Assembly (NCBI GenBank): GCA_963731125.1 | Contig: CAVSVP010000023.1 | Span: 199,550-231,549 of the forward strand | Direction: 5' to 3' | DNA length: 32,000 nt | Source of the DNA: an uncultured Pseudomonadota bacterium | GTDB lineage: Bacteria; Pseudomonadota; Gammaproteobacteria; Competibacterales; Competibacteraceae | Shown: in pieces, positions 694 through 21,569 of the stretch | Layout: each line of letters begins with the position of its first letter | Numbering within the stretch: position 1 is the stretch's first letter | Translations under genes and position numbers: made by a program | Notes under the pieces: model-generated | Told to the model about the DNA's origin: nothing | Databases searched by the model: none | Seen by the model: only the letters and a program-made list of their open reading frames with translations

Positions 694-796
694 TGGGGTA
701 GCCAGAACATATAGGAATAATGGGATGAGCGAATACAGGCGAAAACGCGGGTGTAAAAGAATAGTCGCTACAGAGAGAGTGCGTAACGGTTCGCCA

Positions 797-2351: not shown

Positions 2352-3884
2352 ATGTATGAAATTCTTAAGCAACTAGAAGAAAAACGCGCCGCGGCACGGC
2401 TGGGCGGCGGCCAAAAACGAATTGACGCGCAGCATGCCAAAGGCAAGCTTGCGGCTCGCGAGCGCATCGAGTTGCTACTGGATCCGGGCAGCTTCGAGGA
2501 ATGGGATTTGTTTGTCGAGCATCGCTGTACCGAGTTCGGCATGGCGAATCAGACCATTCCCGGCGACGGCGTAGTGACCGGCTACGGCACCATCAACGGC
2601 CGCGTCGTCTTTGTATTTAGCCAGGATTTTACGGTGTTCGGCGGTTCTCTCTCGGAGGCCCACGCCGAAAAAATCTGCAAGATCATGGATCATGCCATGC
2701 GCGTGGGGGCGCCGGTGATTGGCCTGAACGATTCCGGGGGGGCGCGCATTCAGGAAGGCGTTGCTTCGCTGGCCGGCTACGCCGATGTCTTTCAGCGCAA
2801 TGTCATGGCCTCGGGCGTCATCCCCCAGATCTCCGTGATTATGGGAGCCTGCGCCGGCGGCGCCGTTTATTCCCCGGCCATGACCGATTTTATCTTTATG
2901 GTCAAAGACACCTCGTATATGTTTGTCACCGGTCCCGAGGTGGTCAAGACGGTAACCAATGAGGAAGTCACCCATGAGGAGCTGGGTGGTGCCGTGACTC
3001 ATTCCACCAAATCGGGCGTGGCCGATTGGGCTTTTGATAACGACGTGCAGGCGTTACTGGCGGTGCGCCGGTTTCTCAATTACCTGCCCGCCAATAATCG
3101 GGAGAAACCGCCCGTCCGGCCGACCCCCGATCCCGCCGAGCGCCTGGACCCTTCCCTGGATACTCTGGTGCCGCCTAACCCCAACAAGCCCTATGATATG
3201 AAGGAGCTGATTTTCAAGATCGTGGATGATCACGATTTCACGGAACTGCAGCCGGCCTATGCCAAAAACATTATCATCGGGTTTGGGCGTATGGAAGGTT
3301 CGACGGTAGGCATCGTGGCCAACCAGCCGCTGGTGCTGGCCGGTTGCCTGGATATCGACTCTGCCATCAAGGCGGCGCGTTTCGTGCGCTTTTGTGACTG
3401 CTTTAATATTCCTATTCTCACCTTTGTGGACGTGCCCGGCTTTATGCCCGGTACCGATCAGGAATACGGCGGCATTATCAGACACGGCGCCAAGCTGCTC
3501 TACGCCTATGCCGAGGCGACGGTGCCTAAGATCACGGTGATTACCCGCAAGGCCTATGGCGGCGCCTATGATGTGATGAGTTCCAAACATCTGCGCGGCG
3601 ATGTCAATTTCGCCTGGCCCACCGCAGAGATTGCCGTGATGGGGTCCAAGGGGGCGGTGGAAATTATCTTTCGCCAGGAAATCCGCGATACCGAACTGAT
3701 CGCCGAACGCACCCGGGTGTACCGCACCCGGTTCGCCAACCCGTTCATTGCCGGCAGCCGCGGGTTTATCGATGATGTCATCATGCCCCGCACCACCCGC
3801 AAGCGCATCTGCCGCTCGCTGTCCATGCTCAAGGACAAAAAGCTGGAGAATCCCTGGCGCAAACACGGCAATATTCCCCTGTAA
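2352..3884 (+). CDS. pccB: Propionyl-CoA carboxylase beta subunit (carboxyltransferase, 12S family)
   Basis: 510 aa, acyl-CoA carboxyltransferase family ([22 protein letters not shown]..., GGAYDVM, final GNIPL). AAGGAG Shine-Dalgarno (SD) 7 nt upstream. Followed 12 nt later by the biotin carboxylase/BCCP subunit. Confidence 0.9.
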
Positions 3885-3896
3885 GGAGCGCTTGTT

Positions 3897-5882
3897 ATGT
3901 TTAGCAAAATCTTGGTCGCCAACCGGGGCGAGATCGCCTGCCGTATCATTAAATCCGCCCGTAAGATGGGCATTCAAACCGTTGCCGTGTACTCCGAGGC
4001 GGACCAGACCGCGCTACACACGGAGCTGGCCGACGCGGCCGTGCTGATCGGCCCGCCCCCTTCGGGGCAGAGCTATCTGCGCATGGAGCGCATTGTCCAG
4101 GCCTGTCAGGACACCGGCGCCGAGGCGGTGCATCCCGGCTATGGTTTCCTCTCCGAAAACCCCGCGTTTGTCGAGGCCCTGGCCGCAGCGGGCATTACCT
4201 TTATCGGACCCAAGGCGCATGCCCTGACCAGCATGGGGGATAAGATTACCTCCAAACGCATCGCCCAGGAGGCCGGTGTCAACACCATTCCCGGGTTCGC
4301 GGGCGTCATCAAGGATGCCGGTCATGCCGTGGAGATCGCCCGGGATATCGGCTATCCGGTAATGCTCAAGGCCAGCGCCGGCGGCGGTGGCAAGGGCATG
4401 CGGGTCGCCTGGAACGATAGCGAGTGCCGGGACGGCTTCGAGCGGGCCAGCAACGAAGCCCGCTCCAGCTTCGGTGATGACCGGATACTCGTGGAGAAGT
4501 TTATCGAAGAGCCGCGTCATATCGAGATCCAGGTGCTGGCGGACAGTTACGGCAATGTGGTTTATCTGGGCGAGCGCGAATGCTCTATCCAGCGCCGTCA
4601 CCAGAAGGTGATCGAAGAGGCCCCTTCGCCGTTTCTGGACGAGATGACCCGCCAGGCCATGGGGGAGCAGGCGGTGGCGTTGGCCCGGACCGTGGATTAC
4701 CAGTCCGCCGGCACCGTGGAATTTATCGTCGATGCCCAGCGCAACTTTTATTTTCTGGAAATGAATACCCGGCTGCAGGTGGAGCATCCGGTTACCGAGT
4801 TTGTCACCGGCATCGATCTGGTGGAGCTGATGATCCGGATTGCCGACGGCGAAAGGTTGCCCTTTACCCAGGCCGATGTCAAGCTTAAGGGCTGGGCCCT
4901 CGAGGCGCGCATCTATGCCGAGGACCCGTTTCGCAATTTCCTGCCTTCCATCGGCCGGCTGGTGCGCTATATTCCGCCGGCGGAAAGTGCGGTGGTAAGG
5001 GTGGATGCCGGAGTGCAAGAGGGCGGCGAAGTCTCCATGTACTACGACCCGATGATTGCCAAACTGATTACCTATGGTCCTAACCGCGAGCAGGCCATCG
5101 CCCAGATGCGCACCGCGCTGGATGCGTTTTATATCCGCGGCGTTTCCCATAACATGGGCTTTTTGGCCGCCCTGATGGCGCATCCCCGCTTTGTGGAAGG
5201 ACGCTTGACCACCAGTTTTATCGCCGAGGAGTACCCCGACGGTTTTCATGCCGCCGATGTGCCCCACGACGAACCGGCCCTATTAATTACGGTGGCGGCC
5301 GCGATTCACCGCCGCTATATGGACCGGGCCGCCCTGATCAGCGGTCAGATGCGCGGCCTGGAACGCCAGGTGGAGGACGATTGGGTGGTGTTTATGGGCG
5401 GCAAGTACTATCCGGTGCTCGTAAAGCCCGTCCCCGGCGGTCATGATGTGGTTTACAACGATAAACTCTATGCGGTGCGCAGCGACTGGCAGTTCGGTAA
5501 CCCGATGTTTCGCGGCACGCTGAACGGCACCGACATCTGTGTCCAGGTAGAGCGGCGTTATCTGGAATACCGCCTGTTTCACAGCGGTTCCCAGGTGGAT
5601 GTGCTGATCATGCGGCCGCGGACGGCGGAATTACATGCCTTGATGCCGGTAAAGGCGCCGCCGGATTTATCCAAGTTCCTGATTTCCCCCATGCCGGGAC
5701 TGCTCACCCAGGTGTCCGTCGAGGCGGGCCAGGAAGTCAGGAGCGGAGAGACGCTGGTGGTGATCGAGGCCATGAAAATGGAGAATGTGCTCTATGCCGA
5801 GCAGGATGGCGTAGTGGCGAAGGTGATGGCCAAGCCGGGGGACAGCCTGGCGGTGGATCAGCCGATTATTGAGTTTGAATAG
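3897..5882 (+). CDS. pccA: Propionyl-CoA carboxylase alpha subunit (biotin carboxylase + C-terminal biotinyl domain)
   Basis: 661 aa. MFSKILVANRGEIACRIIK and the ATP-grasp GGGGKGMR motif, with a C-terminal EAMKMEN biotinylation motif. AAGGAG SD upstream. Confidence 0.9.
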   Translation: MFSKILVANRGEIACRIIKSARKMGIQTVAVYSEADQTALHTELADAAVLIGPPPSGQSYLRMERIVQACQDTGAEAVHPGYGFLSENPAFVEALAAAGITFIGPKAHALTSMGDKITSKRIAQEAGVNTIPGFAGVIKDAGHAVEIARDIGYPVMLKASAGGGGKGMRVAWNDSECRDGFERASNEARSSFGDDRILVEKFIEEPRHIEIQVLADSYGNVVYLGERECSIQRRHQKVIEEAPSPFLDEMTRQAMGEQAVALARTVDYQSAGTVEFIVDAQRNFYFLEMNTRLQVEHPVTEFVTGIDLVELMIRIADGERLPFTQADVKLKGWALEARIYAEDPFRNFLPSIGRLVRYIPPAESAVVRVDAGVQEGGEVSMYYDPMIAKLITYGPNREQAIAQMRTALDAFYIRGVSHNMGFLAALMAHPRFVEGRLTTSFIAEEYPDGFHAADVPHDEPALLITVAAAIHRRYMDRAALISGQMRGLERQVEDDWVVFMGGKYYPVLVKPVPGGHDVVYNDKLYAVRSDWQFGNPMFRGTLNGTDICVQVERRYLEYRLFHSGSQVDVLIMRPRTAELHALMPVKAPPDLSKFLISPMPGLLTQVSVEAGQEVRSGETLVVIEAMKMENVLYAEQDGVVAKVMAKPGDSLAVDQPIIEFE

Positions 5883-5923
5883 GGGAGAGGACCCCCAAAC
5901 CGAACTCAGGAAGGATGGAAAAC

Positions 5924-6787
5924 ATGACAAAACGGCCAGCCAAACCGGCGCCGCTGCGTGCCACCGTGCTGCTTCCCGCCCGCGAGATTCAGGCACTGGG
6001 AGCGGCGCTGTTGGTGGTGGGGTTGGCACTACCCTTCTGGGTGATTAAGGAACGCACCCGGCAGGCCGCGGCGGAGCTCGACGCTGCCACCGCTCCCGCG
6101 GCCGGGCCGCTGCGCCCGGAGCTGGTGCGCCTGCCGAATGGTTCTCCGGAGCACGAAATTAAGGTGCCCTTTGCCCTGGCCGTGACGGAAGTGACCCAGG
6201 GCCAGTACCGCCGGGTCATGGGCAACCTTCCCCAGGATGCCTCGTGTTCCCAGCCCGGGGATGATCCCGAACTGCCGGTGGTCTGCGTCACCTGGTTTGA
6301 AGCCATTGACTACGGCAATCGCTTGTCGGCATTGGAAAAACTAGAGCCTTGTTACCGTTACAACCGAGGGAGCGAGCCCATCTGGGACGGGCCTGAGTGC
6401 CCGGGCTACCGTTTGCCTACGGGGGCGGAGTGGGAGCACGCGGCACAGGCGGCAACCCATAATCGCTACGCCGGCACGGACGCAGACGGTGAGCTTTGCC
6501 GTTATGCCAATGTGGCGGAGCGGCGGTTTGCCTGCGCCGATGGCTTTACAACGGCGGCCCCGGTGGGGCATTTTCAACCCAATGCCTGGTTTTTGTACGA
6601 TATGACGGGTAATGTGGCGGAGTGGGTCTGGGATCGAAATGCCGCCGGCCAGGTGCTGGTAAAAGGCGGCGCCTGGACCGCAGGCCCGGATGCGGCAGGA
6701 TTGGCGCGGCAGGATTGGCGGGAACCGGCAGTTCGCCGGCCTGAGGTGGGATTTCGGATCGCCCGCTCGTTTCGGCAAGATGGTTGA
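5924..6787 (+). CDS. Membrane-anchored FGE-sulfatase-fold (SUMF1/FGS-like) domain protein, probably non-catalytic
   Basis: ORF 5915..6787. I prefer the ATG at 5924 because AGGAAGG lies 9 nt upstream. A basic N-terminus is followed by one hydrophobic helix (ALGAALLVVGLALPFWVI), then FGE-family motifs (VTWFEAIDY, YRLPTGAEWEHAA, NVAEWVWD, GGAW...GFRIARS). The region equivalent to the FGE catalytic Cys pair (GGSxxCHxSYC) contains no Cys. Confidence 0.8.
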   Translation: MTKRPAKPAPLRATVLLPAREIQALGAALLVVGLALPFWVIKERTRQAAAELDAATAPAAGPLRPELVRLPNGSPEHEIKVPFALAVTEVTQGQYRRVMGNLPQDASCSQPGDDPELPVVCVTWFEAIDYGNRLSALEKLEPCYRYNRGSEPIWDGPECPGYRLPTGAEWEHAAQAATHNRYAGTDADGELCRYANVAERRFACADGFTTAAPVGHFQPNAWFLYDMTGNVAEWVWDRNAAGQVLVKGGAWTAGPDAAGLARQDWREPAVRRPEVGFRIARSFRQDG

Positions 6788-6886
6788 TATATCTGGGGAT
6801 TTGAGGTCCGCTCATTTTTCCACGAATGTAAGATAAATCAACCTGGTAGGGCTGGTTAACCTACCCACCGCGCCAAATGATGATGA

Positions 6887-7132
6887 TCAGGCCGGAACGT
6901 ATTCGGGTACATCCCGTAACCGCATCAACCGATCCGCCTGGATAGGGAGCAGGGCATAAGTACGTCCATCTGGATCGGCGAACTCGACTTCAAAGGTGCT
7001 ACCGTCATAGGTCATCACGATCGTGCCGATCTGGCCACGGCGGAGCAGTAACGGCTGATCCGTTTCAAAGTGCTTTGCCGGTAGATCCTCAAGCAACGCG
7101 ACGACATCGTGCAGATGAAATGGAGTATTCAT
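6887..7132 (-). CDS. DUF4926 domain protein (putative antitoxin/immunity partner)
   Basis: 81 aa. MNTPFHLHDVVALLEDLP...GTIVMTYDGSTFEVEFADPDGRTYALLPI matches my recollection of DUF4926. The start lies 3 nt after the stop of the upstream DUF6883 gene. Confidence 0.7.
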   Translation of the reverse strand: MNTPFHLHDVVALLEDLPAKHFETDQPLLLRRGQIGTIVMTYDGSTFEVEFADPDGRTYALLPIQADRLMRLRDVPEYVPA

Positions 7133-7135
7133 AAA

Positions 7136-7468
7136 TTAAACGATATAACAAGTTGTCAGCCTGGGAAAGTCTTCACCATGGCGGATGATCCACACGGACA
7201 GCACGATAGCCGTGCCTTTCGCCGTATCGAGCGGGAAGCGAAGAATATAGACCGCCCCGAAACCATTGTCACCTCTTGGCTCTACCTGGTCGGAAGATGC
7301 CGCGGCATTGAGCAGGGCATTACGAAGTACTTGTGCGTTAGCAAGGGTAATGTCAAGGACTGAAGCAAACATATGCGCTTTATGCTTGCCTTCGCGATGC
7401 AAGGGGTTAAGAACGTAGTCCTCGAGTTTAACACCAAGATCTGCTCGTTCACCGTTAGGAAGTTTCAT
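7136..7468 (-). CDS. DUF6883 domain protein (putative toxin-like partner of DUF4926)
   Basis: The ORF track gives 7136..7606. The conserved family sequence starts at the internal Met: MKLPNGERADLGVKLEDYVLNPLHREGKHKAHMFASVL...WIIRHGEDFPRLTTCYIV, about 110 aa, which is the typical family length. I therefore place the start at 7468. Confidence 0.7.
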   Translation of the reverse strand: MKLPNGERADLGVKLEDYVLNPLHREGKHKAHMFASVLDITLANAQVLRNALLNAAASSDQVEPRGDNGFGAVYILRFPLDTAKGTAIVLSVWIIRHGEDFPRLTTCYIV

Positions 7469-7762
7469 GCCAGCAATTTTACTGCCTTCATCGTTTGCTC
7501 GGAAGACAACCCGTACCACCTTCCCAAGGACGAGATCATTATTACCACATCTCCTGATCGACTTAACGGAACGCCTGTCTTTGCCGGAACGAGAGTGCCT
7601 GTACAAACGCTTATTGACTACCTCGAAGCGGGAGATTCTCTGGATGATTTTTTAGTAGATTTTCCGAGTGTATCACGCGAGCTTGCTATTGCCGTATGGA
7701 ACTTGCGAATGAATAAAAAAAATTGGTCTGGTTCAAATCAAGGTAACACTCAGAGGGTCTAA
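7373..7762 (+). pseudogene. DUF433 (antitoxin-like) domain ORF with no usable start, probably a 5'-truncated remnant
   Basis: The DUF433 core (IITTSPDRLNGTPVFAGTRVPVQTLIDYLEAGDSLDDFLVDFPSVSRELAIAVW) begins near 7529. No ATG, GTG or TTG lies in frame between 7398 and the domain. The only canonical starts (7373-7397) force a 50-aa non-homologous leader that overlaps the DUF6883 gene antisense. There is no PIN/DUF5615-type partner downstream. Confidence 0.45.
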
Positions 7763-7829
7763 GTAAATGAAAAGACGATGTATTCCACAAAAAAGTGTTA
7801 CCTTGCTCAGGGATCCATTTGAACCATGC

Positions 7830-7869
7830 CAAAAATTTAAAAAAAATCAGGGGGGCTCCGCCCCCCTGA
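7830..7869 (-). terminator. Intrinsic terminator of the TIR/AAA+/vWA-FGE operon
   Basis: Perfect 9-bp GC stem, TCAGGGGGG-ctccg-CCCCCCTGA (7847-7869). On the minus strand it is followed by TTTTTTTTAAATTTTT, 38 nt after the stop at 7908. Confidence 0.75.
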
Positions 7870-7907
7870 ACCCCCAAATAAAGGGTAAAAGTATAAAGAA
7901 CAAAGGC

Positions 7908-10871
7908 TTAGAACTGCCTGGCCAGGCGAAACCCCCTGCCGTAGTTCCGGGTAGCCGGCGTGTTCCAGTTGCGGCCCGCCGCACGCACCCTATGCGGGCC
8001 GCTGCCCCAGGAGCCGCCCCGGAGCACACGAGGGTCACCATAATCAGCACGATTTTTGCTATAACACTCCTGCTCCGCACCACCGTAGTTTTTATCATAG
8101 ACTGAGCAGGTCCATTCCCAAACATTACCCGCTGTATCATAAAGGCCAAACGCATTCGCCCGAAAACTCCCTACCGGCGCCGTCTGTTTCCTGTCCCAGC
8201 GACTCCCGCAATTGTAGCAATTGGCATTATTGCTGCCGATATCGTTCCCCCACCAATAAGCCGTCTGCGTTCCTGCCCGCGCCGCGTATTCCCACTCCGC
8301 CTCCTTCGGTAAGCGGTATGCTTCGCCCGTCTGCTCCGATAACCAGTCCGCATAGTCCTTGGCATCTTTCCAGGTAACATTGATCACCGGTCGCCGTCCG
8401 CGGCCCCAGCCTCGATCGCCGGGTTTCTTACTGCCGGTAGCCTCCGCAAAACGATCATATTCCTCAAAAGTCACCTCATACTTACCCACGGCAAAAGGCC
8501 GCTCAATGCGCACCAAATGCTGCCGCTCATTGTCATAGCGGCCCCCCTCATCCTCCGGCGAACCCATCATAAACTCCCCCGCAGGAATGACCACCATCTC
8601 TGGTCCTTTTGAACCATCCTTCAACGTATCTCGAAATTCCGATTCAACCAGCTCCACCTCCCGGACAGCGGGCATTATTCCCGAGACTTCGATAGTCGTC
8701 GGTGGACGCAGCAGCCAGGTTTTCAGACCCGGCCATTGTTCCGCGACAAAAAAGCCTACAGTCACCGCCACTAACATGGTCAAACCAGGCTCCAGCCAAC
8801 CCTGCCACGGCCGGCCCAGCAGTTCTCCAAGATGCAACCGGCCTGCCGCGTGCCCCGTCACCAAAGCCAATTGGTCCTGCATGCCGGGCTCCAACAGCGG
8901 CAATTCCTTTTGACGCTCCAGTTCCACTTCAATGGCCCGCAGTAATTCGGCTCCGGCAGCCCCGTCAAGCAGAAGAGGCAGCCGCGCCAGCGCCCGCTCC
9001 GGTTCCAGGCGCAGCAGATGAGAGATCCGCTTGACTTCCCAAAATTGGCGCAACAGCTCGTCATCGGGGCGGGTGGCATCCAGCTGCTCCAGCAGCAGTC
9101 GCCGGCCTTGCGCCTCAAGCCGCTGCTCGGCAGGCAATTCCGCATCGCGCTGGCGCTGTTCGCGAATCAGTTTGTCGACAAGAGCTTCACTGAGTACCAG
9201 CGTGCGGCCGTCCTCGCTCTCGGGATTGGAGTTGTTGTCTTCCCGGGCTACCCACTCCAGCAGCCGCTGCAGATACCGTGGCGTCGGCAGGGCTGCGTTA
9301 AGGTCAGGAAAGCGCCGACGCAGATAGTCCAGTTGGTCCCAGGTGGCATCCGGCACCAGCGCCGCCAACAGGGCCCAACGCGGCAACGCTCGGGCAACCT
9401 CGGGATCGCTCAGCGGTTTGAGCGGCTCCCAGGTGGGCGTGCGTATGCCCTGTCCTCCTTCCGCAAGGTAGCGCGCTAGCGCCAGCAGGCCGGCCTCGCT
9501 AAAGGGAAAGCGCTGCAGGCCAAGCCCCTCCAGCTCGCGAATCTCCCGGCGTTCCCGACGGCGCTTGCCGAGGGGTCGCGGGTCGACGAGGTCCAGCCAT
9601 GCCTTCACCGGCCAGGCGTCGAGTTCTGCCAGCCAGGCAGCGCGCTCCCGCAGCCCCTGGGTACTGAGGGCGCGGGAGATAATCAGCAGCGGTTCGTCGT
9701 CGGCATGACGGGCCAGCCGCTGCAAAGGTACCGGGTTGCCCGTGGCGGGCATACTGACAAACAGGGGATCAAAACGGAAATCGTAACGGGCAAAACGTAC
9801 TCCCAGCGCTGCCCAGCGTTCCAGCAGCCAATGAATGCCCGCCAGCCACGGGTAGTCGCCACGCTCAATGTCCAGCAGTACCAGAAACTGCCCGGCTACG
9901 GATTGAGACAGGTAAACCGGCGCCAGCCGTCCACCCTGCTGTATCGTGGCGTGCACGGTGGCCGTAATATCCAGGTCGGCGCTGCTCAGTGATCGGAATA
10001 ACCGCCCTAGAATAGCGGCGGAATCCTCTGCCACGCTGACGGGCAGGGGAGGATACCGCTCGACCTGATAGGTCAGATGGAGCGGCGCCTGCCGCTGCTC
10101 TGCCTGCTCGGCAAGCCGCTTTCGCTCCGAGGTAACCCTTTGATGCCGTCGCACAGCCTGGGCCTGCCGGTAACGCTCAACCATGCCCGGCAGCAGCAGC
10201 CAGCGCAGGCCCACGCAAAAGAGCATCAAAGACAAACCGATCACCAGGGCGTCGCGGCCGTCGAGAGAACGTGGTTTGGGTTGGATTTCAACGGGCTCCG
10301 CCGAGGGGCGCTCCGGCACCAAAGGTTCTCCGCGAAGTATCCACCAGCGCTTGAGGCTATCGGGAGCGTCGGGTTCCGGCGGCGTCTTAATGGGTTCCGC
10401 ATCCTCCACAGGCGGTTCCGGAGGACGCAGTGACAGCGTCACTAAGGCGGCAACCCCCAGGCCCAGTAGCAGGGCGATGGTCGCCAACCATAGCCGGCGG
10501 GGGGCATTGCGGATACGCTGCCAAAGCGACGCAAAAAAAGTATGCCACCAGGACCGGCGTTCACACTGGCCGGGTTCTTCCAGCGCGGGCGTTTCCGAAT
10601 CTTTACCAGAGGGAACATTATCCGGCGCACTGGATGGTGGAGGTGCTTCCGAAAAGTAGAGATCAAACAGATTGACAATTTGCCGCCACTGCGCCTCATT
10701 CGTCGCTAGCAGTGCGGCCAGCCCGGCGCGTAGTTCGCGGCGGCTCAATGCCGGCCGCCGCGTCAGCAATTGCCGCACCTGGAGGTACTCCGCCGGGCCC
10801 AGGCGGATAATGCGACGCCGGTTGATGGCATCGAGAAAGGCTTGCACGTTGCGATCTGCCGCCCCGGCCAC
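7908..10871 (-). CDS. 987-aa three-TM protein: CoxE-like N-terminal helix region + TM hairpin + degenerate vWA-like core + helical region + TM + C-terminal FGE-sulfatase-fold (FGS) domain
   Basis: GTG start at 10871, 5 nt after the AAA+ stop. Hydrophobic helices at about aa 127-148, 207-229 and 695-712. The segment DLDITATVHATIQQGGRLAPVYLSQSVAGQFLVLLDIERGD resembles the CoxE-type vWA entry strand, with DIERG in place of the MIDAS motif DxSGS. The C-terminal 230 aa carry FGE-family motifs (VIPAGEFMMGS, VTWKDAKDYADWL, YRLPKEAEWEYAARAG, NVWEWT, RGGSW...GFRLAR) without the catalytic Cys pair. Confidence 0.85.
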   Translation of the reverse strand: MAGAADRNVQAFLDAINRRRIIRLGPAEYLQVRQLLTRRPALSRRELRAGLAALLATNEAQWRQIVNLFDLYFSEAPPPSSAPDNVPSGKDSETPALEEPGQCERRSWWHTFFASLWQRIRNAPRRLWLATIALLLGLGVAALVTLSLRPPEPPVEDAEPIKTPPEPDAPDSLKRWWILRGEPLVPERPSAEPVEIQPKPRSLDGRDALVIGLSLMLFCVGLRWLLLPGMVERYRQAQAVRRHQRVTSERKRLAEQAEQRQAPLHLTYQVERYPPLPVSVAEDSAAILGRLFRSLSSADLDITATVHATIQQGGRLAPVYLSQSVAGQFLVLLDIERGDYPWLAGIHWLLERWAALGVRFARYDFRFDPLFVSMPATGNPVPLQRLARHADDEPLLIISRALSTQGLRERAAWLAELDAWPVKAWLDLVDPRPLGKRRRERREIRELEGLGLQRFPFSEAGLLALARYLAEGGQGIRTPTWEPLKPLSDPEVARALPRWALLAALVPDATWDQLDYLRRRFPDLNAALPTPRYLQRLLEWVAREDNNSNPESEDGRTLVLSEALVDKLIREQRQRDAELPAEQRLEAQGRRLLLEQLDATRPDDELLRQFWEVKRISHLLRLEPERALARLPLLLDGAAGAELLRAIEVELERQKELPLLEPGMQDQLALVTGHAAGRLHLGELLGRPWQGWLEPGLTMLVAVTVGFFVAEQWPGLKTWLLRPPTTIEVSGIMPAVREVELVESEFRDTLKDGSKGPEMVVIPAGEFMMGSPEDEGGRYDNERQHLVRIERPFAVGKYEVTFEEYDRFAEATGSKKPGDRGWGRGRRPVINVTWKDAKDYADWLSEQTGEAYRLPKEAEWEYAARAGTQTAYWWGNDIGSNNANCYNCGSRWDRKQTAPVGSFRANAFGLYDTAGNVWEWTCSVYDKNYGGAEQECYSKNRADYGDPRVLRGGSWGSGPHRVRAAGRNWNTPATRNYGRGFRLARQF

Positions 10872-10876
10872 GCCGC

Positions 10877-11890
10877 TTAACCGCCTTGCCGTACCCGCTC
10901 CAGATCCTCACGGAGTTTCAGCAGGCAGCTCAGGGCCGGCAGCGTATGCCAGGTCACCGCCTCATGGTTTTCCGTGCGCGCCGCCTCGACGGCTAAGCGG
11001 CGTGCAGTTTCCGCCGGATCGAAAACCGTTAATAACACCGCCAGCCAGTCGAGTAGTTCTGCCGTGGCCGGTTGCTTAGTCAGCCGAAAGTGAGGGCTGC
11101 GCAGCTCGGTAAAGAGCGTGATGGCATTATGCTTGAGGGGTGGCGGTGCCTTGGGGAAATGCGCATCCAGAATTTCCTGAAGCCGCTTATGGTCGGGAAA
11201 AGGGATATAAAAAAACACGCAGCGCCGCAAAAAAGCATCGGGAAGCTGGCGTTCCACATTGCTGGTGATAATTACGAAAGGCTTGGGGGCGCCGGGCGGC
11301 GGCCGCATCTGCCGCGTCAGTCCGGCGTGGCCGGGCGCGATGGCATCCGGTATGATGTCTTGTCCCTGGGGAATCTCCGGAATCTCAAACCAGCCCTGGT
11401 CCAGCTCCCGCAATAAATCATTGGGCAGGTCGCGGGGCGCCTTATCGATTTCATCAATTAATACCACCCGGCGCACCGGAGAGGTCAGGGCGATGCCCAG
11501 CGGTTCCAGGGTAATATAGTTCTGGGGGAAAGCCGCGCGGCGTCTGCCCTGTTCACCGCCGGTTTGCGCATCGCCGAAGCGGCGCACCGCATCGTAATGA
11601 TAGAGAAGCTGCTGGGCGCGGGTTTCACTGCGCACATACTGGGCCAGCACCTCCCGGGGAGCGGATGCGCCAGCGGAATCTATGGTCAAACCGCTGGCGG
11701 CGGCAAAGGCAAAATCGGTTTTGCCGCAGCCCGGCTCCCCTGTCAACAGCAACGGTCGGTCCAGGGCCAGGGCGACATTGGCGGCGGCCAGTAGGTCCGG
11801 ATCGGCCAGAAAAGGTTTACCGTCGCGACCCACCATGCGGCCGGCATCCAGCAGAGAATAGGGCGGCTGATAAGCAACGGGTGTCGGCAT
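10877..11890 (-). CDS. AAA+ ATPase, MoxR/CoxD (AAA_5)-like
   Basis: 337 aa. Walker A LLLTGEPGCGKT (K57), Walker B RRVVLIDEIDKA (D146/E147), and a sensor-1/Arg region FVIITSNVERQLPDAFLRRC. The start lies 3 nt after the TIR gene stop. Confidence 0.88.
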   Translation of the reverse strand: MPTPVAYQPPYSLLDAGRMVGRDGKPFLADPDLLAAANVALALDRPLLLTGEPGCGKTDFAFAAASGLTIDSAGASAPREVLAQYVRSETRAQQLLYHYDAVRRFGDAQTGGEQGRRRAAFPQNYITLEPLGIALTSPVRRVVLIDEIDKAPRDLPNDLLRELDQGWFEIPEIPQGQDIIPDAIAPGHAGLTRQMRPPPGAPKPFVIITSNVERQLPDAFLRRCVFFYIPFPDHKRLQEILDAHFPKAPPPLKHNAITLFTELRSPHFRLTKQPATAELLDWLAVLLTVFDPAETARRLAVEAARTENHEAVTWHTLPALSCLLKLREDLERVRQGG

Positions 11891-11893
11891 GGC

Positions 11894-13108
11894 TTAGGCG
11901 TCCTGTAGATAGCGGTCTATCAGATCGGCCAGTTCCTGATAGCTCAACCGGGAACCGGAGATCAGCCGCTGGTACTCGGTTTTTAGCTCTTCAACCATTG
12001 CCGGCGGCGGGCGTGGACTTTGATGGCTGAAATAATCTTCCAGCTCTTCCCAGGTAGGCAGCTTTACCGGCGGCAGCAGGCGGTAACGAAGCCGGCCGCT
12101 GGCCTGCGCCTGCTGCCCCCAGGCATCGACGTGCTGCACCAGAGGAGGCAGCGTACCAGGTGGCATCTCGGCCTCTTCATAATCAAGGGCCAGCAGAATG
12201 CGAATATCGTTGCCGGGCCGGGCGTCATTCAGCAGGCCAGGCAGGGATTCGGTAATAAATTCCTGCAGCCCTGTCTGCTGATTGTCATCGAGCCGGTCCA
12301 GAGGACGTAGGCCGAGAATCAGAAACAGCGCCTGCTCCCGGGCGGTCTGGGCCAGGCATTGGGCGGCATTCCCCTGACCACCCAGCGCCAGGCGCAGATG
12401 CCGGCACCAATCGGCTCCGCAGCGCGCGGCAATGCCTTCCCATTTAAACCGCACCCGGTAAACCGCATGAGGAAAACGGGTTTCCTGGCTCAGATAGCGC
12501 TGGATGCGCTCGACGAACAGGGCGACATTTTGGTGCCGCGGCCCGTGTAGCAGAAATAACACGTGGCCGGGCTGGAGGCTTTCCTCGAGCACACCGCTCC
12601 ATTGGGGATAGCGGTCCAGGCGAAGCGCCGCCCCGAGGGCCAGGTAGTTTCCGGAAGAAAGCGGCGTTTGCGGCTGAGTTTGCCGGTCGCACTCGGTAAG
12701 CCAATTTGCGAGTTCTTGGGCGATGCGTTCAAGGCCGCCGTGCTTGGTAGCATCCATGGCCTGCAAAATGCCGGTGCCATAGGGCATGCCACCATGACTC
12801 TCCGGCAGTTTCTCGAGCAGAACGGGAATCACGGTATGCGCCTGGGGATTGTCCCGGGCAAGCTGAATAGCACGGGCGATCTCTTCGTGCTGGTAAAAAG
12901 CGGCATCGGTATGAGAGGAAATCAACACGACAGTGGCGCGGGAGGCTTGCAGGGCATCCCGCAGCGTAGTGGGCCAGGGCGCTCCCGGGGAAATACCCTG
13001 CTGATCAAGAAAGACCTGGCATTGTTGGTCTTGAAGCTCCCAGCACAACGCTTTTGCCTGCCGAGTATCGGATCCCGCATGAGCAATAAAAAAATCAAAT
13101 GGCCCCAT
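11894..13108 (-). CDS. TIR-domain protein with about 250-aa unassigned C-terminal domain (degenerate P-loop-like)
   Basis: 404 aa. The N-terminal roughly 140 aa show the TIR pattern DFFIAHAGSD...QVFLD...ATVVLISSHTDAAFYQHEE...VIPVLL. The C-terminal part has VLFLLHGPRHQNVALFVERI and ALFLILGLRPLDRLDD, reminiscent of Walker A/B strands but without GK[ST]. A GGGAGGGG SD lies upstream. Confidence 0.85.
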   Translation of the reverse strand: MGPFDFFIAHAGSDTRQAKALCWELQDQQCQVFLDQQGISPGAPWPTTLRDALQASRATVVLISSHTDAAFYQHEEIARAIQLARDNPQAHTVIPVLLEKLPESHGGMPYGTGILQAMDATKHGGLERIAQELANWLTECDRQTQPQTPLSSGNYLALGAALRLDRYPQWSGVLEESLQPGHVLFLLHGPRHQNVALFVERIQRYLSQETRFPHAVYRVRFKWEGIAARCGADWCRHLRLALGGQGNAAQCLAQTAREQALFLILGLRPLDRLDDNQQTGLQEFITESLPGLLNDARPGNDIRILLALDYEEAEMPPGTLPPLVQHVDAWGQQAQASGRLRYRLLPPVKLPTWEELEDYFSHQSPRPPPAMVEELKTEYQRLISGSRLSYQELADLIDRYLQDA

Positions 13109-13776: not shown

Positions 13777-15672
13777 TTAGTCAACCCAACTATCCCGCCA
13801 TTTAATAATGCCTTCGTTGGCTAAGATCCAGCGGCGGCAAATAAGATTTTCGCGAAGCGGTTCCTGATTGTCGCGCCACATGGCGTATTTGTAGGCAATC
13901 GCCTTTCCCGCACTCTCATTAAAGGGAATCTCACCAAACCAAGTATTATCGTTGATGTACTCTAGGGGGTACGCTTTGCGAATATCCCAGTTACCTAGCT
14001 CTGGACAATCACCCGTTACCACAATGGTTTCGCCGGGGTTAGTGGCAATGCCGTTGAGTTGGGCCCGCACGATGGTTTGCCCCTTAACCCGATCGCCGAT
14101 GTAACTGAGCACAATGATTTCCTTGGAGCCCAGCGTCAGGCCCAATAAATTACCGTCTTTGATTGCAAAGCGGCGCTGGGTCAACATACAAAAATATTCC
14201 CCATCTTCCAAATCGGTGAATTGCACATCGATGGTGGCTGAATCCCCCTTGTTCATCGCGATGAAGCAGCGCGAATCTCGATAACGCCGTAGATAACAGT
14301 AGCTATCCGGCGTGATATATTTTTGCACCTGACTGCCTAACGATACCGCTGGATTTAGTCGCCGTAGCTTCGAAAACGCCTGCAAATCCTGATAAATCTG
14401 GGTGTTCGTATCCCATTTGTCCAGCATTGGGCGATTATACGGATCATTCCCGCCATTGGTGTCATTATGGAGATACTGCTCCGTGCCGTAATAGATACAG
14501 GGTATGCCACGGGAAGTCATGACCAGAGCGATCGCTAACCGTAATATATCTAAGTCGGGATTAAGACTTAAAAATCGCTTCATGTCATGGTTATCGATAA
14601 ACGTCACCAGCTCCGTTGCCGTGTCATAAAGATAATCTAGATCCAATACGTATTGGATGAGGTGAAAGCCTTCTGGCGCCTCTTCTGCCAAAGCTGCCCG
14701 AAGCGCATCGCACAGGCCGAAATCCAGAATTGACATGCCCGATTTATTAGCAAAGTAGGGCGATTTGCCATCCTTGGGTGTGCTAAAACCCCATTCTCCA
14801 AAAATAAACACCGAGGGTTTATGCGTTTGAATATCGGCATTAAATTCTTGCCAAAACCAGAACGGCATATGTTTAACCGTATCCACGCGCAACGCATCAA
14901 CACCCCGTTCTAGCCATTGCTTGATAGCAGATTTGATGTAGTTGCGAAACTCAGGATTACTTTCATTAAACGTCGCCAAACCTGACAGTTCATAGTACAA
15001 AAGCTGAGTCTCGTCCTCCCAATCGGTAATCTCAGGATTATGGTGATACCAGTTGTTAACATCGTTGTAAAAATCGGCAATTAAAACGCCATTATCATAA
15101 AGTTCGCCTTTATGGCCGTTCACATCCGGACTGCTGTGGTTACAGACTATATCCAGGATTAGTTTCATGCCCCGCTTGTGCATTTCCACGAGCAGTCGAT
15201 CGAAGACCGTACATTTGAAAAGAGAAGTGTCTTCATCCTTAGCGACAAAGCGCGGGTTAATCCGCTTAAAATCTTTCGTCCAGTAACCATGCATGGCAGC
15301 GTAATAGTCAAACTGCAAATCTTCCACTTGCTCAAACAAAGGCGAAACCCAAATAGCGGTAACTCCCATGCCCTTTAAATAGTCAAGTTTATCAATAATC
15401 CCTTGGAGATCTCCGCCCCAGTATTTGCCCCATTGCTGTCGCGTGGGATCATAAAGTTCTGGATGCGGACCTTCGTTATTACTCGGATCACCGTCGTTAA
15501 AGCGATCAACGATAATGAAATAAATCGTTTCCTGGCGAAATTCAATCGACCTGGTAAAAAGAAATTCAAACTCCAAATCTTTTTCAGCAGCAACCGCAGT
15601 GGTATGAAACCCAGCAGCGGCCTCAAAAGCGGTTTTTTCAGTATCAGATTGGGATGGAGGAGTTTGCGCCAT
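13777..15672 (-). CDS. GH13 alpha-amylase-family glycosidase with C-terminal CBM20 starch-binding domain, no signal peptide
   Basis: GH13 conserved regions are present: DRFNDGD, GMKLILDIVCNHSS, GVDALRVDTVKHM, FIFGEW, FIDNHDM. The C-terminus has a CBM20-like GETIVVTGDCPELGNWD...AYKYAMW. The track ORF starts at GTG 15690. I prefer the ATG at 15672, which has GGAG 8 nt upstream. Confidence 0.88.
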   Translation of the reverse strand: MAQTPPSQSDTEKTAFEAAAGFHTTAVAAEKDLEFEFLFTRSIEFRQETIYFIIVDRFNDGDPSNNEGPHPELYDPTRQQWGKYWGGDLQGIIDKLDYLKGMGVTAIWVSPLFEQVEDLQFDYYAAMHGYWTKDFKRINPRFVAKDEDTSLFKCTVFDRLLVEMHKRGMKLILDIVCNHSSPDVNGHKGELYDNGVLIADFYNDVNNWYHHNPEITDWEDETQLLYYELSGLATFNESNPEFRNYIKSAIKQWLERGVDALRVDTVKHMPFWFWQEFNADIQTHKPSVFIFGEWGFSTPKDGKSPYFANKSGMSILDFGLCDALRAALAEEAPEGFHLIQYVLDLDYLYDTATELVTFIDNHDMKRFLSLNPDLDILRLAIALVMTSRGIPCIYYGTEQYLHNDTNGGNDPYNRPMLDKWDTNTQIYQDLQAFSKLRRLNPAVSLGSQVQKYITPDSYCYLRRYRDSRCFIAMNKGDSATIDVQFTDLEDGEYFCMLTQRRFAIKDGNLLGLTLGSKEIIVLSYIGDRVKGQTIVRAQLNGIATNPGETIVVTGDCPELGNWDIRKAYPLEYINDNTWFGEIPFNESAGKAIAYKYAMWRDNQEPLRENLICRRWILANEGIIKWRDSWVD

Positions 15673-15725
15673 AAATTCAGCTCCGGTCACGATAACGATT
15701 CACTGACTATTGTTGGATAAGGTGT

Positions 15726-15831
15726 TATCGATCTGGAAGTTATTCTCAAGACACACTGTCAATACATCCTTATAAGCTCGGCTGCGGCATCCATGCCGCA
15801 GACGGTCTTGATAACAGCTTCCAGATCGATA
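15726..15831. repeat. 106-bp MITE-like palindromic element, copy 1
   Basis: Perfect 14-bp terminal inverted repeats TATCGATCTGGAAG / CTTCCAGATCGATA, extended imperfect arms, and a central palindrome CTGCGGCAT-cc-ATGCCGCAG. The reverse complement matches copy 2 (21752-21857) at 93 of 106 positions with no gaps, by manual alignment. Confidence 0.6.
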
Positions 15832-17583: not shown

Positions 17584-19038
17584 CTACTGCGCCAAAGCCG
17601 ACAGCAGCACTCCCGCGGCCACGGCGGAGCCGATGACACCGGCCACGTTAGGACCCATGGCATGCATCAATAAAAAGTTATGGGGATCTTCTTTCTGGCC
17701 CACGTTATGTACCACCCGGGCCGCCATCGGGACCGCCGAGACACCGGCCGCACCGATCAGGGGGTTGATGGGGTGTTTGCTCAGTTTATTCATCAGTTTG
17801 GCCATTAGCACTCCACAGGCGGTGGCGATAACGAAGGCCAAAATGCCGAGCACAAAAATGCCGATAGTCTGCAAGGTCAAAAAGCTCGACGCCTGGGTTT
17901 TGGCGCCTACCGATACGCCCAGTAAAATGGTGACGATGTCAATCAGGGCCGTTTGGGAAGTCTTGGAGAGCCGGTCGGTGACCAGACTTTCCCGCAACAG
18001 ATTACCGAAGAACAGCATGCCCAGCAGGGGCAGGGCGGCAGGCGTAATAAACGCCGTCAGCAGAAAGCCGATGAGGGGAAACATAATGCGGGTGCGGCGC
18101 GAGACTTCCCGGGGCATCTCCATGCGGATCAGGCGTTCCCGCTGAGTGGTCAGCAGCTTCATCACGGGCGGCTGAATAATGGGCACCATCGCCATATAGC
18201 TATAGGCCGCCAAGGCCACGGCGCCCAATAGCTCAGGTGCCAAAGCGGTACAGACAAAGATGGACGTAGGCCCGTCGGCACCGCCGATAATACCGATCGA
18301 GGCGGCCTCCTTAAGATCGAAACCCAGGAGCACGGCGCCCACTAAAGCGCCGAAAATGCCGATTTGGGCGGCGGCCCCTAACAGCAGAGTCCGGGGGTTG
18401 CTCAGCATCGGGCCGAAGTCGGTAAGGGCACCGACGCCTAGAAAAATCAGCGGTGGGAAGATGCCAAGACCCACTCCCTGGAAGATAAAGTAAAAGAAAC
18501 CGGCATTCCAGACGCTCTGAGACTGGGGCGTGGCTACCGTAGGATAGCGGTTGTCATCGGCGGGCGCCTGCACAAAAATCTGCCGGCCCTGTCCCATATC
18601 GATAATAGCGGGTTTCTGAACATCTCCATAGTAAGTCAGTTTGACGTGTTCGTTAACGATGATTCCCTGGCCGTTTTCCACCAGACGCTTGCCTGCCTGG
18701 GAATCATGCACCGGCTCGATGGTCTTCAGCGGAATGTGTTCCTGGCCGCGTCTTTCGGTATGGTACACTTGTTGGTAGAGGGCGGGAGGGACTTTATAGT
18801 AATGCAGATCGGCTTCGCTTACCGGCCCGTCATAGACGCCGAGGCTCAATTGGCGGCTGTCATAGGGGATATTGCCGATCAGCATGCCAAAGCCGATCGG
18901 GACCAGCAGCAGGGGTTCAAATCGCTTGTTGATTGCCAGGTAAATAAATAGACAACCGATAAGGATCATGACCCCGTTTCCCCATTGGAACTGGCCAAAG
19001 CCAGTCTGCTGGAGAAAATTCAGCAGGGTTTCTTGCAT
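17584..19038 (-). CDS. mmdB: Na+-translocating decarboxylase beta subunit (OadB/MmdB/GcdB family), with a large loop insertion
   Basis: 484 aa. KRFEPLLLVPIGFGMLIGNIP...PPLIFLGVGALTDFGPMLSNPRTLLLGAAAQIGIF...IIGGADGPT are family signatures. It is the last gene of the decarboxylase operon. Confidence 0.9.
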   Translation of the reverse strand: MQETLLNFLQQTGFGQFQWGNGVMILIGCLFIYLAINKRFEPLLLVPIGFGMLIGNIPYDSRQLSLGVYDGPVSEADLHYYKVPPALYQQVYHTERRGQEHIPLKTIEPVHDSQAGKRLVENGQGIIVNEHVKLTYYGDVQKPAIIDMGQGRQIFVQAPADDNRYPTVATPQSQSVWNAGFFYFIFQGVGLGIFPPLIFLGVGALTDFGPMLSNPRTLLLGAAAQIGIFGALVGAVLLGFDLKEAASIGIIGGADGPTSIFVCTALAPELLGAVALAAYSYMAMVPIIQPPVMKLLTTQRERLIRMEMPREVSRRTRIMFPLIGFLLTAFITPAALPLLGMLFFGNLLRESLVTDRLSKTSQTALIDIVTILLGVSVGAKTQASSFLTLQTIGIFVLGILAFVIATACGVLMAKLMNKLSKHPINPLIGAAGVSAVPMAARVVHNVGQKEDPHNFLLMHAMGPNVAGVIGSAVAAGVLLSALAQ

Positions 19039-19097
19039 AAGTCAGTTTTCCAGTAGCAGGTGAATCGGTTTAAGGACACGGCAACGGCTTGGATGCA

Positions 19098-19478
19098 CTA
19101 CTCAAACTCAATTAAGAGTTGGCCCTGTTTGACCGCATCGCCTTCTGCTACATGGATGTTTTTAATGGTGCCGGGTCCTGCCGAGACGATATTGGTTTCC
19201 ATCTTCATCGCCTCGAGAATAATCAGGTCCTGCCCCGTTGCCACCCGATCGCCGACCTTGACCAGTAATTTAAAGACGGTTCCGGACAATGGACTGGTTA
19301 CGGTCGTATCGCCGCCGGAGGAGGGTGCGGCAGCCGCCGGCGCTTTAGCGGCGGCCTGTAGTTGTGGAGTGCTGGTCGGCGTCGGGGTAGCGGGTCGCGG
19401 GGCCGGTGCACCCTCTTCGTCCACAAATTCTACGTCCACCTCATAGGTGACGCCTTCTAGGGTAATCCTCAGTTTCAT
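19098..19478 (-). CDS. mmdC: Biotin carboxyl carrier subunit of the decarboxylase (MmdC-like)
   Basis: 126 aa, with an Ala/Pro-rich linker followed by a biotinyl domain carrying the LEAMKMET motif. Confidence 0.85.
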   Translation of the reverse strand: MKLRITLEGVTYEVDVEFVDEEGAPAPRPATPTPTSTPQLQAAAKAPAAAAPSSGGDTTVTSPLSGTVFKLLVKVGDRVATGQDLIILEAMKMETNIVSAGPGTIKNIHVAEGDAVKQGQLLIEFE

Positions 19479-19541
19479 AGGTTATGGCTTCTGTATTCTT
19501 GCTTTTGGGTCTAATGGAAGTGCTCAGCGAGATAGCAATGC

Positions 19542-19874
19542 TTAGCGAGATAATCCCTCTTTCTGATCGGCTCGTCCCACGGCTGTCCATAGCGCAGGAA
19601 CATGTTTATGACTGACAAAGCGTACCCGGCGGACACGCACCGGTCGCTTTACCGCAACGGTAGCCGCCGCGGCCAACAACACAATGACGTGTTTGTCGAT
19701 GCCCTGGAACGACTCCTCCGGAAGCGGTGCAGCAAAGTTGGCGGGAACAGGGGGTTTTTCCTGAAAAAGACGCCCTATTAAACTGACCATAATACCGGTA
19801 ACGATCAGGGCGAGAAACACGGCACTGACACCCACTACGGTCAGCTGAAAGCTTTCTGATAGCATTTCGGGCAT
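19542..19874 (-). CDS. mmdD: OadG-family small membrane subunit (MmdD-like)
   Basis: 110 aa. One N-terminal TM helix (LTVVGVSAVFLALIVTGIMVSLIG), a Pro-rich linker and a conserved-looking VIVLLAAAATVAV segment. It lies between the carboxyltransferase and carrier genes. ACGGAG SD upstream. Confidence 0.6.
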   Translation of the reverse strand: MPEMLSESFQLTVVGVSAVFLALIVTGIMVSLIGRLFQEKPPVPANFAAPLPEESFQGIDKHVIVLLAAAATVAVKRPVRVRRVRFVSHKHVPALWTAVGRADQKEGLSR

Positions 19875-19958
19875 GTTAGCAACTCCGTACTGTGATAACG
19901 GTAAGGGTGCGGTCTTTATGCACCAGGGCGCTGGGTTTTCTCGTAAACCAGCATAGGC

Positions 19959-21512: not shown

Positions 21513-21569
21513 ACGTTCACCAAGTGAACCTCAGCCCCGTTGGGAGAGGCTTGTTAAACCGGATGCTAT

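Follow-up and report, generated by a model that had tools for sequence, protein, structure and literature searches.

The closest described relatives of the locus treated here come from two studies of bacterial conflict systems built around a MoxR-type AAA+ ATPase. The iSTAND ternary system, subsystem 2 of the vWA-MoxR systems, is a comparative-genomics prediction by Kaur, Burroughs, Iyer and Aravind (eLife 2020, PMC7159879). Dore et al. (PNAS 2024, PMC10907252) described “antigen sensors” with C-type lectin (CLec) folds, which are diversified by diversity-generating retroelements (DGRs) and encoded beside MoxR and TIR genes. The two studies disagree on the direction in which the signal flows. 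A preliminary description of the present locus had taken it for experimentally uncharacterised, and no experimental study of an iSTAND or VMAP MoxR-vWA ternary system was found in the literature. Here, we present the analysis of a three-gene operon and a conserved neighbouring gene in a window of 32 kb (the whole stretch of DNA analysed, from contig CAVSVP010000023.1 of an uncultured bacterium of the Competibacteraceae). The operon encodes a TIR-iSTAND protein (gene 1), a MoxR ATPase (gene 2) and a large membrane protein with a C-terminal FGE-fold domain (gene 3).

The locus is a member of the iSTAND-type MoxR-vWA ternary class and does not constitute a new class. It combines a MoxR ATPase with intact motifs and without VMAP extension, an inactive STAND domain with fused TIR, and a third protein with a four-helix domain, transmembrane (TM) segments and a variable C-terminus. 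The preliminary description, made from the sequence alone, had proposed a conflict system of the kind predicted by Kaur et al. with TIR and FGE-like modules, and both domain calls and synteny agree with this. It had further matched this composition to no named system; PADLOC indeed finds none, but the class itself had already been named (PMC7159879). New with respect to that description are a hypervariable tip of gene 3, a conserved short FGE gene and the predicted periplasmic position of the FGE domains. With moderate confidence, we read the locus as an iSTAND-type ternary conflict system arranged around a transmembrane receptor which signals from outside to inside.

Components of the locus and the hypervariable tip

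The three minus-strand genes are separated by gaps of 3 nt and 5 nt, and their open reading frames (ORFs) are exactly those described before (Table 1). The Shine-Dalgarno sequence and the TATAAT box reported upstream of gene 1 can be read directly, the latter as a predicted promoter, and the reported GC-rich hairpin with T-run was recovered behind gene 3. Together with the short FGE gene, the complete four-gene unit spans about 7.2 kb, including an unrelated insertion of 1.1 kb. All checked catalytic motifs of the ATPase and the TIR domain are intact.

In gene 1, the TIR domain noted earlier is confirmed by Pfam. Its residue E76 is invariant across 20 homologues and, in alignments with a plant TIR and PdTIR, falls on their catalytic Glu position; it is the candidate catalytic Glu. 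The remaining part of about 250 aa, which had been left unassigned, is an inactive STAND (iSTAND) domain. The Pfam family PF19995 (iSTAND) is matched by 14 of 20 full-length homologues with a best E of 4.4e-6, the protein itself reaching 18.6 bits, under the cut-off of 24. The top Foldseek match of the AlphaFold model (pLDDT 81) is the plant TIR-NLR RPP1 (465 columns, E=2.4e-11), in an alignment that takes in both TIR and NB-ARC. At the position of the STAND P-loop the family reads LLHGPRHQNV, and no GK[S/T] is present. It is this assignment that places the locus in the already named iSTAND ternary class. VMAP-C, the third component of the VMAP ternary system, was not found in gene 1 by the Pfam scan, which returned only TIR families and iSTAND for the protein and its 20 homologues; the presence of a VMAP-C model in the library was not checked, and this is weak evidence.

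Gene 2 encodes the AAA+ ATPase recognised before. Pfam AAA_5 scores 28.3 bits, over the gathering threshold of 22, and Walker A (GEPGCGKT, with K57), Walker B (VVLIDEID, with D146 and E147), sensor 1 and the Arg finger are intact; the segment IITSN...LPDAFLRRC is present as well. A profile of 46 homologues matched midasin (E=5e-13) and the MoxR-family protein NorQ (E=8.5e-4) in the PDB. Of about 8000 homologues, many that share 52-60% identity carry the MoxR family label in NCBI or JGI. Walker A is preceded by no more than 50 residues, none of them Trp; the VMAP-type N-terminal motifs (WxhapG / PsWRxa, as given in PMC7159879) are therefore absent. With the NCBIfam model “MadB family AAA-type ATPase” (NF047784), gene 2 reached 76 bits, far under the cut-off of 475; no account of this family was found in the literature, and the match was not used.

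Gene 3 encodes an inner-membrane protein with three TM segments. In the AlphaFold model of residues 1-745 (pLDDT 74), the TM segments read from hydropathy coincide with model helices, and Arg/Lys-rich flanks stand before TM1 and after TM2. Hydropathy and the positive-inside rule would place the FGE domain in the periplasm, and the N-domain together with the alpha/beta and helical domains in the cytoplasm. Hydropathy and charge distribution suggest that both FGE domains of the locus, that of gene 3 and that of the short FGE protein, face the periplasm. The TM segments and the FGE-sulfatase match of the preliminary description thus hold good. Its CoxE-like vWA core is weakly supported and is the weakest part of the finding.

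Residues 278-470 of gene 3 are probably a CoxE-like vWA domain with a degenerate metal site. VWA_CoxE was matched by eight of 45 diverse family members, all below the gathering threshold (best E 1.2e-4); nine family members scanned with Pfam gave no VWA_CoxE match. Three matches with recovered positions (E 0.007-0.13) cover profile positions 10-84 of 222, which corresponds to residues ~289-333 of gene 3, leading into strand beta1. The order beta1-alpha1-beta2-beta3...beta6 predicted by AlphaFold is compatible with a vWA fold, and the highest-probability Foldseek match of the model is the vWFA2 domain of collagen VII (0.69). D334 and D427 are nearly invariant to invariant in the family. No vWA protein was matched when family profiles of 16 and 108 members were compared with PDB sequences. 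The helical domain that follows (residues 490-672) has no Pfam or PDB match. It carries W499, V506-P507, W511, R518, L537 and L597, near-invariant across the family, and, lying between the vWA-like domain and TM3, would be on the path of any transmembrane signal.

The C-terminal domain of gene 3 is a non-catalytic lectin-fold module. The best PDB match of the family profile is TvpA of Treponema denticola (2y3c), a DGR variable protein (E=5e-56 and 6.5e-65), while the single sequence has its best PDB match in PvdO (E=1e-41). Compared with the FGE of Streptomyces and Thermomonospora, the “LCH” segment with the first catalytic Cys is deleted and the second Cys aligns with Pro. A catalytic FGE was rejected as the identity of this domain, both catalytic Cys being absent.

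The tip of this domain is hypervariable. Two alleles of the candidate DGR variable region (VR) could be compared, that of the window and that of a near-identical Logan contig (L006, run SRR21285596). The L006 protein is identical to gene 3 over residues 135-944, and 15 of the last 42 residues differ. On the DNA level, the two sequences show no difference over the 2.1 kb from 8041 to 10142 and 21 differences in 7927-8035. Twelve of the 21 fall on codon position 2, nine on position 1 and none on position 3, where a lack of third-position changes has P=(2/3)^21=2e-4. At 16 of the 21 variable sites one allele has A, which occupies only 3 of 88 invariant VR positions (binomial P about 5e-8 for the involvement of adenine). 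The variation of the tip between near-identical strains thus follows the adenine-linked pattern at codon positions 1 and 2 that is typical of DGRs. Placing A at every variable site yields a predicted template DNA which includes TGGGACAACAACCCGCATAGGGTGCGTGCGGCGAGCCGCAACAGGAACAAGCCGGCTAACCGGAACTACGACAGGGGGTTTCAC and encodes GGSWDNNPHRVRAASRNRNKPANRNYDRGFH, an AAC-rich (Asn-rich) tract. AAC-rich tracts are typical of DGR templates. Homologous gene 3 proteins of other lineages are also most divergent in the VR segment. Between the related loci L015 and L002, excess change occurs in the same segment of gene 3; these lineages are 9% diverged overall and the pattern is blurred.

From these sequences we infer that the tip was diversified by a DGR. 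A template repeat was sought in the window with 60-nt pieces of both FGE 3′ ends, on both strands and at 70% identity or more, and only self-matches were obtained; a repeat search of the window found only the paralogy between the two FGE genes. Neither a reverse transcriptase nor Avd is encoded in the 32 kb. Self-BLAST within 10 kb to either side of 15 related loci gave no template repeat, and their gene tables list no reverse transcriptase. A degenerate pattern of VR and template repeat and the constant segment upstream of the VR had 0 matches in JGI metagenome contigs and viral contigs. The template and reverse transcriptase for the VR would accordingly have to lie elsewhere than in the window. 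The terminator hairpin of gene 3, about 58 nt 3′ of the last variable site, could, speculatively, double as a DGR target-recognition hairpin.

The comparison with L006 also showed mosaic divergence across 8041-11890. Gene 2 is about 6% diverged, with 42 of 64 mismatches at codon position 3, and the first 430 nt of gene 3 contain 34 mismatches (about 8%), followed by the 2.1 kb of complete identity up to the VR. The pattern suggests that recombination has recently occurred within the operon or that the metagenome contig is a chimera.

A conserved fourth component is formed by the short FGE gene, which is convergent with gene 3. Its product has an N-terminal TM anchor (residues 22-40 by hydropathy) and is 38-51% identical to its orthologues vs 31% to the FGE domain of gene 3. 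In five related lineages an FGE gene of this kind (about 283-403 aa) directly follows the large gene, convergent or co-directional: in a Proteobacteria metagenome-assembled genome (MAG; L002/L003/L015), a metagenome lineage (L004), a distant relative (L007), Entotheonella (L008) and, as a separate FGE gene, a Sorangium variant (L014). The locus is therefore not the self-contained triad that had been proposed, both for this fourth gene and for the DGR template and reverse transcriptase, which must be sought outside. The short FGE protein may act as a co-receptor. All five other cluster members that cover its C-terminus are identical there, so this gene is not diversified in the window lineage and was rejected there as a second DGR target. 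L007 is the most distant relative with all four genes. Its large gene (13780-14069) and its short FGE gene (14956-15245) share 70% identity over 290 nt at their 3′ ends, a similarity continuing for about 23 nt beyond both stop codons; in that lineage, both genes could be targets of one template.

Gene order is conserved in at least five divergent lineages, more than chance would account for. The four-gene neighbourhood is found in a Proteobacteria MAG, in Entotheonella and in the metagenome lineages L004/L005 and L007. Modular variants occur as well. Nannocystis has SIR2_2 at the position of the TIR, then MoxR, then a 1242-aa protein with a weak PEGA match, and in Sorangium TIR and MoxR are accompanied by a 796-aa protein and a separate FGE gene. 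Among 45 members of the gene 3 family, the C-terminal domain is FGE-sulfatase in 25, PEGA in two, a WD40 propeller in one and TPR in two. The middle region of gene 3 is represented by about 340 clusters among 1.84 billion proteins. A scan of 185,579 GTDB species-representative genomes with gene 1 motifs found four loci only, in a Gammaproteobacteria MAG, a Proteobacteria MAG and two Entotheonella.

Presence and absence of the locus differ between close strains. In a close relative (L019/L020, with gene 1 84% identical), the block 5884-11753 is missing as one piece (site 1925-2389 in L019). With it, gene 3, the insertion, the short FGE gene and the larger part of gene 2 are lost. What remains is gene 1 with 136 nt of gene 2, next to a carboxylase gene. 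The gene 1 product of this allele (P0017) has a scrambled internal segment, which suggests decay. Split ORFs of the large or the TIR-iSTAND gene were observed in L002 (11019-13922) and L004 (7206-8414 and 9436-12489) and may represent frameshifts, assembly errors or pseudogenes; the L002 locus is intact in L015/L016.

Signal flow and rival explanations

From the observed parts list, conservation and hypervariability, we infer a sequence of functional steps that would end in defence. A DGR encoded elsewhere in the genome would diversify the receptor tip in trans. The periplasmic tip, possibly with the short FGE protein as co-receptor, would then bind an extracytoplasmic ligand derived from an invader, candidates being a phage particle or tail protein and the surface of an epibiont or competitor. 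Binding would be relayed via TM3 to the cytoplasmic helical and vWA-like domains, upon which the MoxR hexamer would spend ATP to remodel the vWA/iSTAND complex and the TIR-iSTAND protein would be released or oligomerised. Assembly of TIR domains with each other could finally lead to NAD+ cleavage, be it depletion or production of a signalling nucleotide, and to growth arrest or death of the attacked cell. A more far-reaching picture, which we regard as possible and put forward tentatively, is that of a four-gene hypermutating transmembrane “antigen receptor”. In it, a DGR-diversified periplasmic lectin with a possible invariant co-receptor would sense threats before genome entry and be relayed through a degenerate vWA domain and MoxR to a P-loop-dead STAND that fires a TIR NADase. 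If true, a bacterium would here possess a somatically diversified immune receptor that signals from outside to inside.

Several results weigh against the outside-in reading. The topology of gene 3 comes from hydropathy and the positive-inside rule only, with TM3 as the weakest segment (score 1.64). Gene 3 itself has no Pfam vWA match, its model finds nothing in the PDB by Foldseek at E<=0.001, and the MIDAS (metal ion-dependent adhesion site) motif DxSxS is replaced by D334-I-E336-R-G-D. As no template repeat, reverse transcriptase or Avd was found, the DGR is deduced from two VR alleles only. The locus lies among metabolic genes and not in a classical defence island, and no homologue of the N-terminal part of gene 3 was found in plasmids and phages.

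The main rival is a reversed flow, as in the original model of Kaur et al., where the TIR-iSTAND protein senses or makes a nucleotide signal, MoxR transduces it, and the FGE/lectin domain on the vWA protein is the effector or an invader-binding output. PMC7159879 classes vWA-fused domains including FGS as effectors and the third component as sensing coordinator, and proposes inactive NTPase modules as receptors; that the C-terminal domain of the gene 3 family is swapped between relatives, as effectors are, fits the same model. The FGE domain of gene 3, however, lacks catalytic residues and bears a hypervariable ligand-binding tip, so a receptor suits it better than an effector. The TIR domain, in turn, is an established effector or signal generator, and the same objection, together with a sensor model, is argued in PMC10907252. 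We consider the reversed flow rather unlikely. A different question is what an outside-in receptor would be for. Instead of immunity against invaders, it could serve cell-cell recognition, kin discrimination or regulated death in an aggregate-forming bacterium, the lectin reading conspecific or environmental surface ligands. A predicted extracytoplasmic receptor is well placed for contact sensing, relatives occur in Entotheonella, Sorangium and Nannocystis, and Table 1 of PMC7159879 reports a statistical enrichment of iSTAND and VMAP systems in bacteria of multicellular habit. Presence/absence polymorphism between close strains and DGR-type hypermutation are nevertheless more typical of arms-race loci, and TIR effectors are best known from abortive infection. 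The present evidence does not discriminate decisively between the two roles; to a purpose other than immunity we assign a low probability.

The hypervariability of the tip could have another source than a DGR, namely recombination or gene conversion between alleles, positive selection or a chimeric contig, in which case gene 3 would be a sensor of fixed specificity. Only two alleles are at hand, neither template repeat nor reverse transcriptase was found, and the mosaic pair of window and L006 means that recombination or assembly chimerism is occurring. Yet recombination would neither spare third codon positions (0 of 21) nor concentrate changes on adenines as observed, the deduced template is AAC-rich (Asn-rich) like those of DGRs, and homologues of other lineages diverge most in the same segment, so that we hold this explanation to be improbable. 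Most improbable of all is a MoxR-vWA chaperone which matures a periplasmic FGE-fold enzyme or inserts its cofactor, comparable to CoxD/CoxE, NorQ/NorD or CbbQ/CbbO, with FGE domains resembling PvdO or FGE enzymes. PvdO is the best single-sequence PDB match of the FGE domain, NorQ is among the PDB matches of the gene 2 profile and gene 3 has CoxE-like features; the NCBIfam PvdO model, at 166 bits, stays far under its cut-off of 500. Against such a role stand the absence of both FGE catalytic cysteines, the lack of a conserved client enzyme gene nearby in the related loci, and flanking metabolic genes that vary by lineage. Cofactor insertion, moreover, has no use for a TIR-iSTAND partner or a hypervariable tip.

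The locus is unusually small and complete and carries natural evidence of diversification of the receptor tip, which makes it a practical experimental model. Questions that can be addressed with it are whether the hypervariable lectin domain is the sensor, whether a signal from outside the cytoplasm can trigger a TIR effector, and how a MoxR ATPase acts on a vWA partner that has lost its metal site.

Features and surroundings of the locus

The features of the locus are collected in Table 1.

Table 1. Genes, domains and signals of the locus and the adjacent insertion, with positions in the 32-kb window.
Feature	Residues	Window positions	Strand	Remarks
Gene 1, TIR-iSTAND		11894..13108	-	ORF; 404 aa, ATG start
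TIR domain of gene 1	6-121	12746-13093	-	Pfam TIR_2 E=1e-19
iSTAND module of gene 1	~150-400		-	HGPRHQNV where the P-loop is expected
Gene 2, MoxR/midasin-class AAA+ ATPase		10877..11890	-	ORF; 337 aa
Gene 3, putative membrane receptor / vWA-like component		7908..10871	-	ORF; 987 aa, GTG start
Four-helix N-domain of gene 3	2-72	10656-10868	-	AlphaFold helices 2-18, 26-38, 44-55, 59-72
TM1 of gene 3	129-147		-	hydropathy; RIRNAPRR just before
Acidic Pro-rich loop of gene 3	149-205		-	net acidic
TM2 of gene 3	209-227		-	hydropathy; Arg/Lys-rich helix after
Alpha/beta vWA-like domain of gene 3	278-470	9462-10040	-	AlphaFold
Helical domain of gene 3, conserved	490-672	8856-9404	-	AlphaFold
TM3 of gene 3	692-710		-	hydropathy
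FGE/CLec-fold domain of gene 3	756-985	7917-8606	-	FGE-sulfatase 194 bits
Hypervariable region, candidate VR	945-981	7927..8035	-	37 codons, 109 nt
TATAAT box, candidate promoter of gene 1		13139-13134	-	read directly
Candidate Shine-Dalgarno GGGAGGGG		13126-13119	-	10 nt 5′ of the gene 1 ATG
Alternative weak -35/-10, candidate promoter		13273-13244	-	sole site from consensus promoter scan
Intrinsic terminator		7839..7869	-	10-bp stem (8 GC pairs) at 7869-7847, then T8
Short FGE-fold gene, conserved fourth member		5924-6787	+	287-290 aa, convergent with gene 3; FGE-sulfatase E=6e-31
DUF4926 gene		6887-7132	-	insertion, toxin-antitoxin (TA)-like
DUF6883 gene		about 7136-7470	-	insertion, TA-like
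DUF433 gene		about 7530-7762	+	insertion, TA-like

Gene 3 and the short FGE gene are separated by the 1.1-kb insertion of small TA-like genes; in related loci this gap measures about 20-250 nt. The TA-like neighbours of the preliminary description were thus found (DUF4926, DUF6883 and DUF433). The Uma2 gene listed with them was rejected as a component of the system, since no similarity between it and the Uma2 genes of L002 or L008 could be detected.

The flanking genes, which differ between lineages, include propionyl-CoA carboxylase, methylmalonyl-CoA mutase, MeaB and amylase. The carboxylase beta subunit of the window belongs to a 90%-identity cluster that bears the name of a Gammaproteobacteria MAG. 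In the window, 2352-5882 and 17584-28500 form a propionate/methylmalonyl-CoA gene set with paralogous carboxyltransferase genes at 2352-3884 (+) and 19959-21512 (-), about 72% identical in DNA over 294 nt, as well as biotin carboxylase, an oxaloacetate-decarboxylase beta subunit, two methylmalonyl-CoA mutase subunits and MeaB. An inverted pair of 107 nt with 88% identity (15725-15831 / 21752-21858) resembles miniature inverted-repeat transposable elements (MITEs). MITE-like units contain CTCCCACCAGGGGAGAGGGAGTT, and a further repeat pair lies at 21565-21714 / 27135-27264. In L019, the 107-nt repeat recurs in the interval from Uma2 to gene 1 and close to Maf (514-619, 5977-6089), and a GGGGAGAGGGAGTT-type motif is part of the deletion junction. 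No Rfam families and no tRNAs were found in the window.

Comparison with described systems

PADLOC models identified no named defence system; the matches were weak and confined to single domains (the TIR of gene 1, and gene 2 below 23 bits). For Thoeris, the TIR effectors of CBASS/Pycsar, TIR-SAVED, SPARTA and retron-TIR, PADLOC and NCBIfam matches remained at the level of the TIR domain, below 31 bits and far below the cut-offs, and the partners ThsA, cyclase, SAVED, Argonaute and reverse transcriptase are not encoded in the window.

Like plant TIR-NLRs (RPP1, Roq1) and bacterial STAND/Avs NTPases, gene 1 places a TIR before a STAND-fold module, and by this analogy TIR activation driven by oligomerisation is likely. 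In contrast to these proteins, its STAND P-loop is destroyed, and the sensor would reside on a separate membrane protein and not in leucine-rich repeats or TPR of the same chain. With the P-loop lost, nucleotide switching is presumably outsourced to the separate MoxR ATPase. TvpA of Treponema denticola and Mtd of a Bordetella phage share with gene 3 the FGE-type/C-type-lectin fold with variable residues at the C-terminus. They are stand-alone ligand binders of a surface or tail fibre, whereas the fold in gene 3 would be the ectodomain of a signalling protein with an ATPase and a TIR effector as its partners.

The nearest experimental study concerns the Esr MoxR-vWA pathway of Schaalia odontolytica (bioRxiv 2026, PMC13622651), which is required for responses to an extracellular threat, epibionts, seen in experiment. 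There, too, surface sensors of diverse sequence pass a signal through a MoxR-vWA pair to an output that is defensive, but the sensors are beta-propeller filaments, the output consists of a kinase/FHA phosphorelay and Esx secretion, and TIR, iSTAND and DGR are absent.

Among DGR-CLec-MoxR loci, those of Thiohalocapsa PB-PSB1 DGR 8/9 and of reverse transcriptase clade 5A (PMC10907252) are closest. There, as here, the gene just downstream of MoxR encodes a long target that ends in a CLec domain and begins with an extension in which Pfam detects no domain. A second, short protein made up of CLec only is present as well, and TIR or peptidase effectors are adjacent. Among the targets are some with multiple TM segments and periplasmic CLec domains, as is predicted for gene 3. 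These loci differ in that both of their CLec proteins are targets and the cassette of reverse transcriptase and template repeat usually lies in or close to the locus, whereas the window has no cassette within 8 to 24 kb and its short FGE protein is invariant. For similar loci, the diversification of remote targets in trans is documented (PMC10907252). The term iSTAND has 0 occurrences in that paper.

The iSTAND ternary system differs from the locus in three respects, as far as the cited part of PMC7159879 goes: DGR linkage is stated there for VMAP and not for iSTAND systems, a conserved short FGE partner gene is not mentioned, and FGS is treated as effector and not as sensor. In composition, the locus agrees with the class in its architecture, the vWA domain of gene 3 being a probable one. 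The class comprises an effector-iSTAND protein, a MoxR without VMAP-type extensions and a vWA component, and, as in gene 1, TIR can stand at the N-terminus of the iSTAND (alternatives in the class being DRHyd, peptidase and EAD). Its vWA component has a four-helix N-domain of the CoxE type and TM segments, one of them ahead of the C-terminal domain, and gene 3 likewise has a four-helix N-domain and a TM segment ahead of its C-terminal domain. In the class, the C-terminal domain varies; FGS is found most often (about 22% of systems), and PEGA in relatives, as in the gene 3 family. According to PMC7159879, the class is found in proteobacteria with multicellular habits, which is likewise in keeping with the locus described here.

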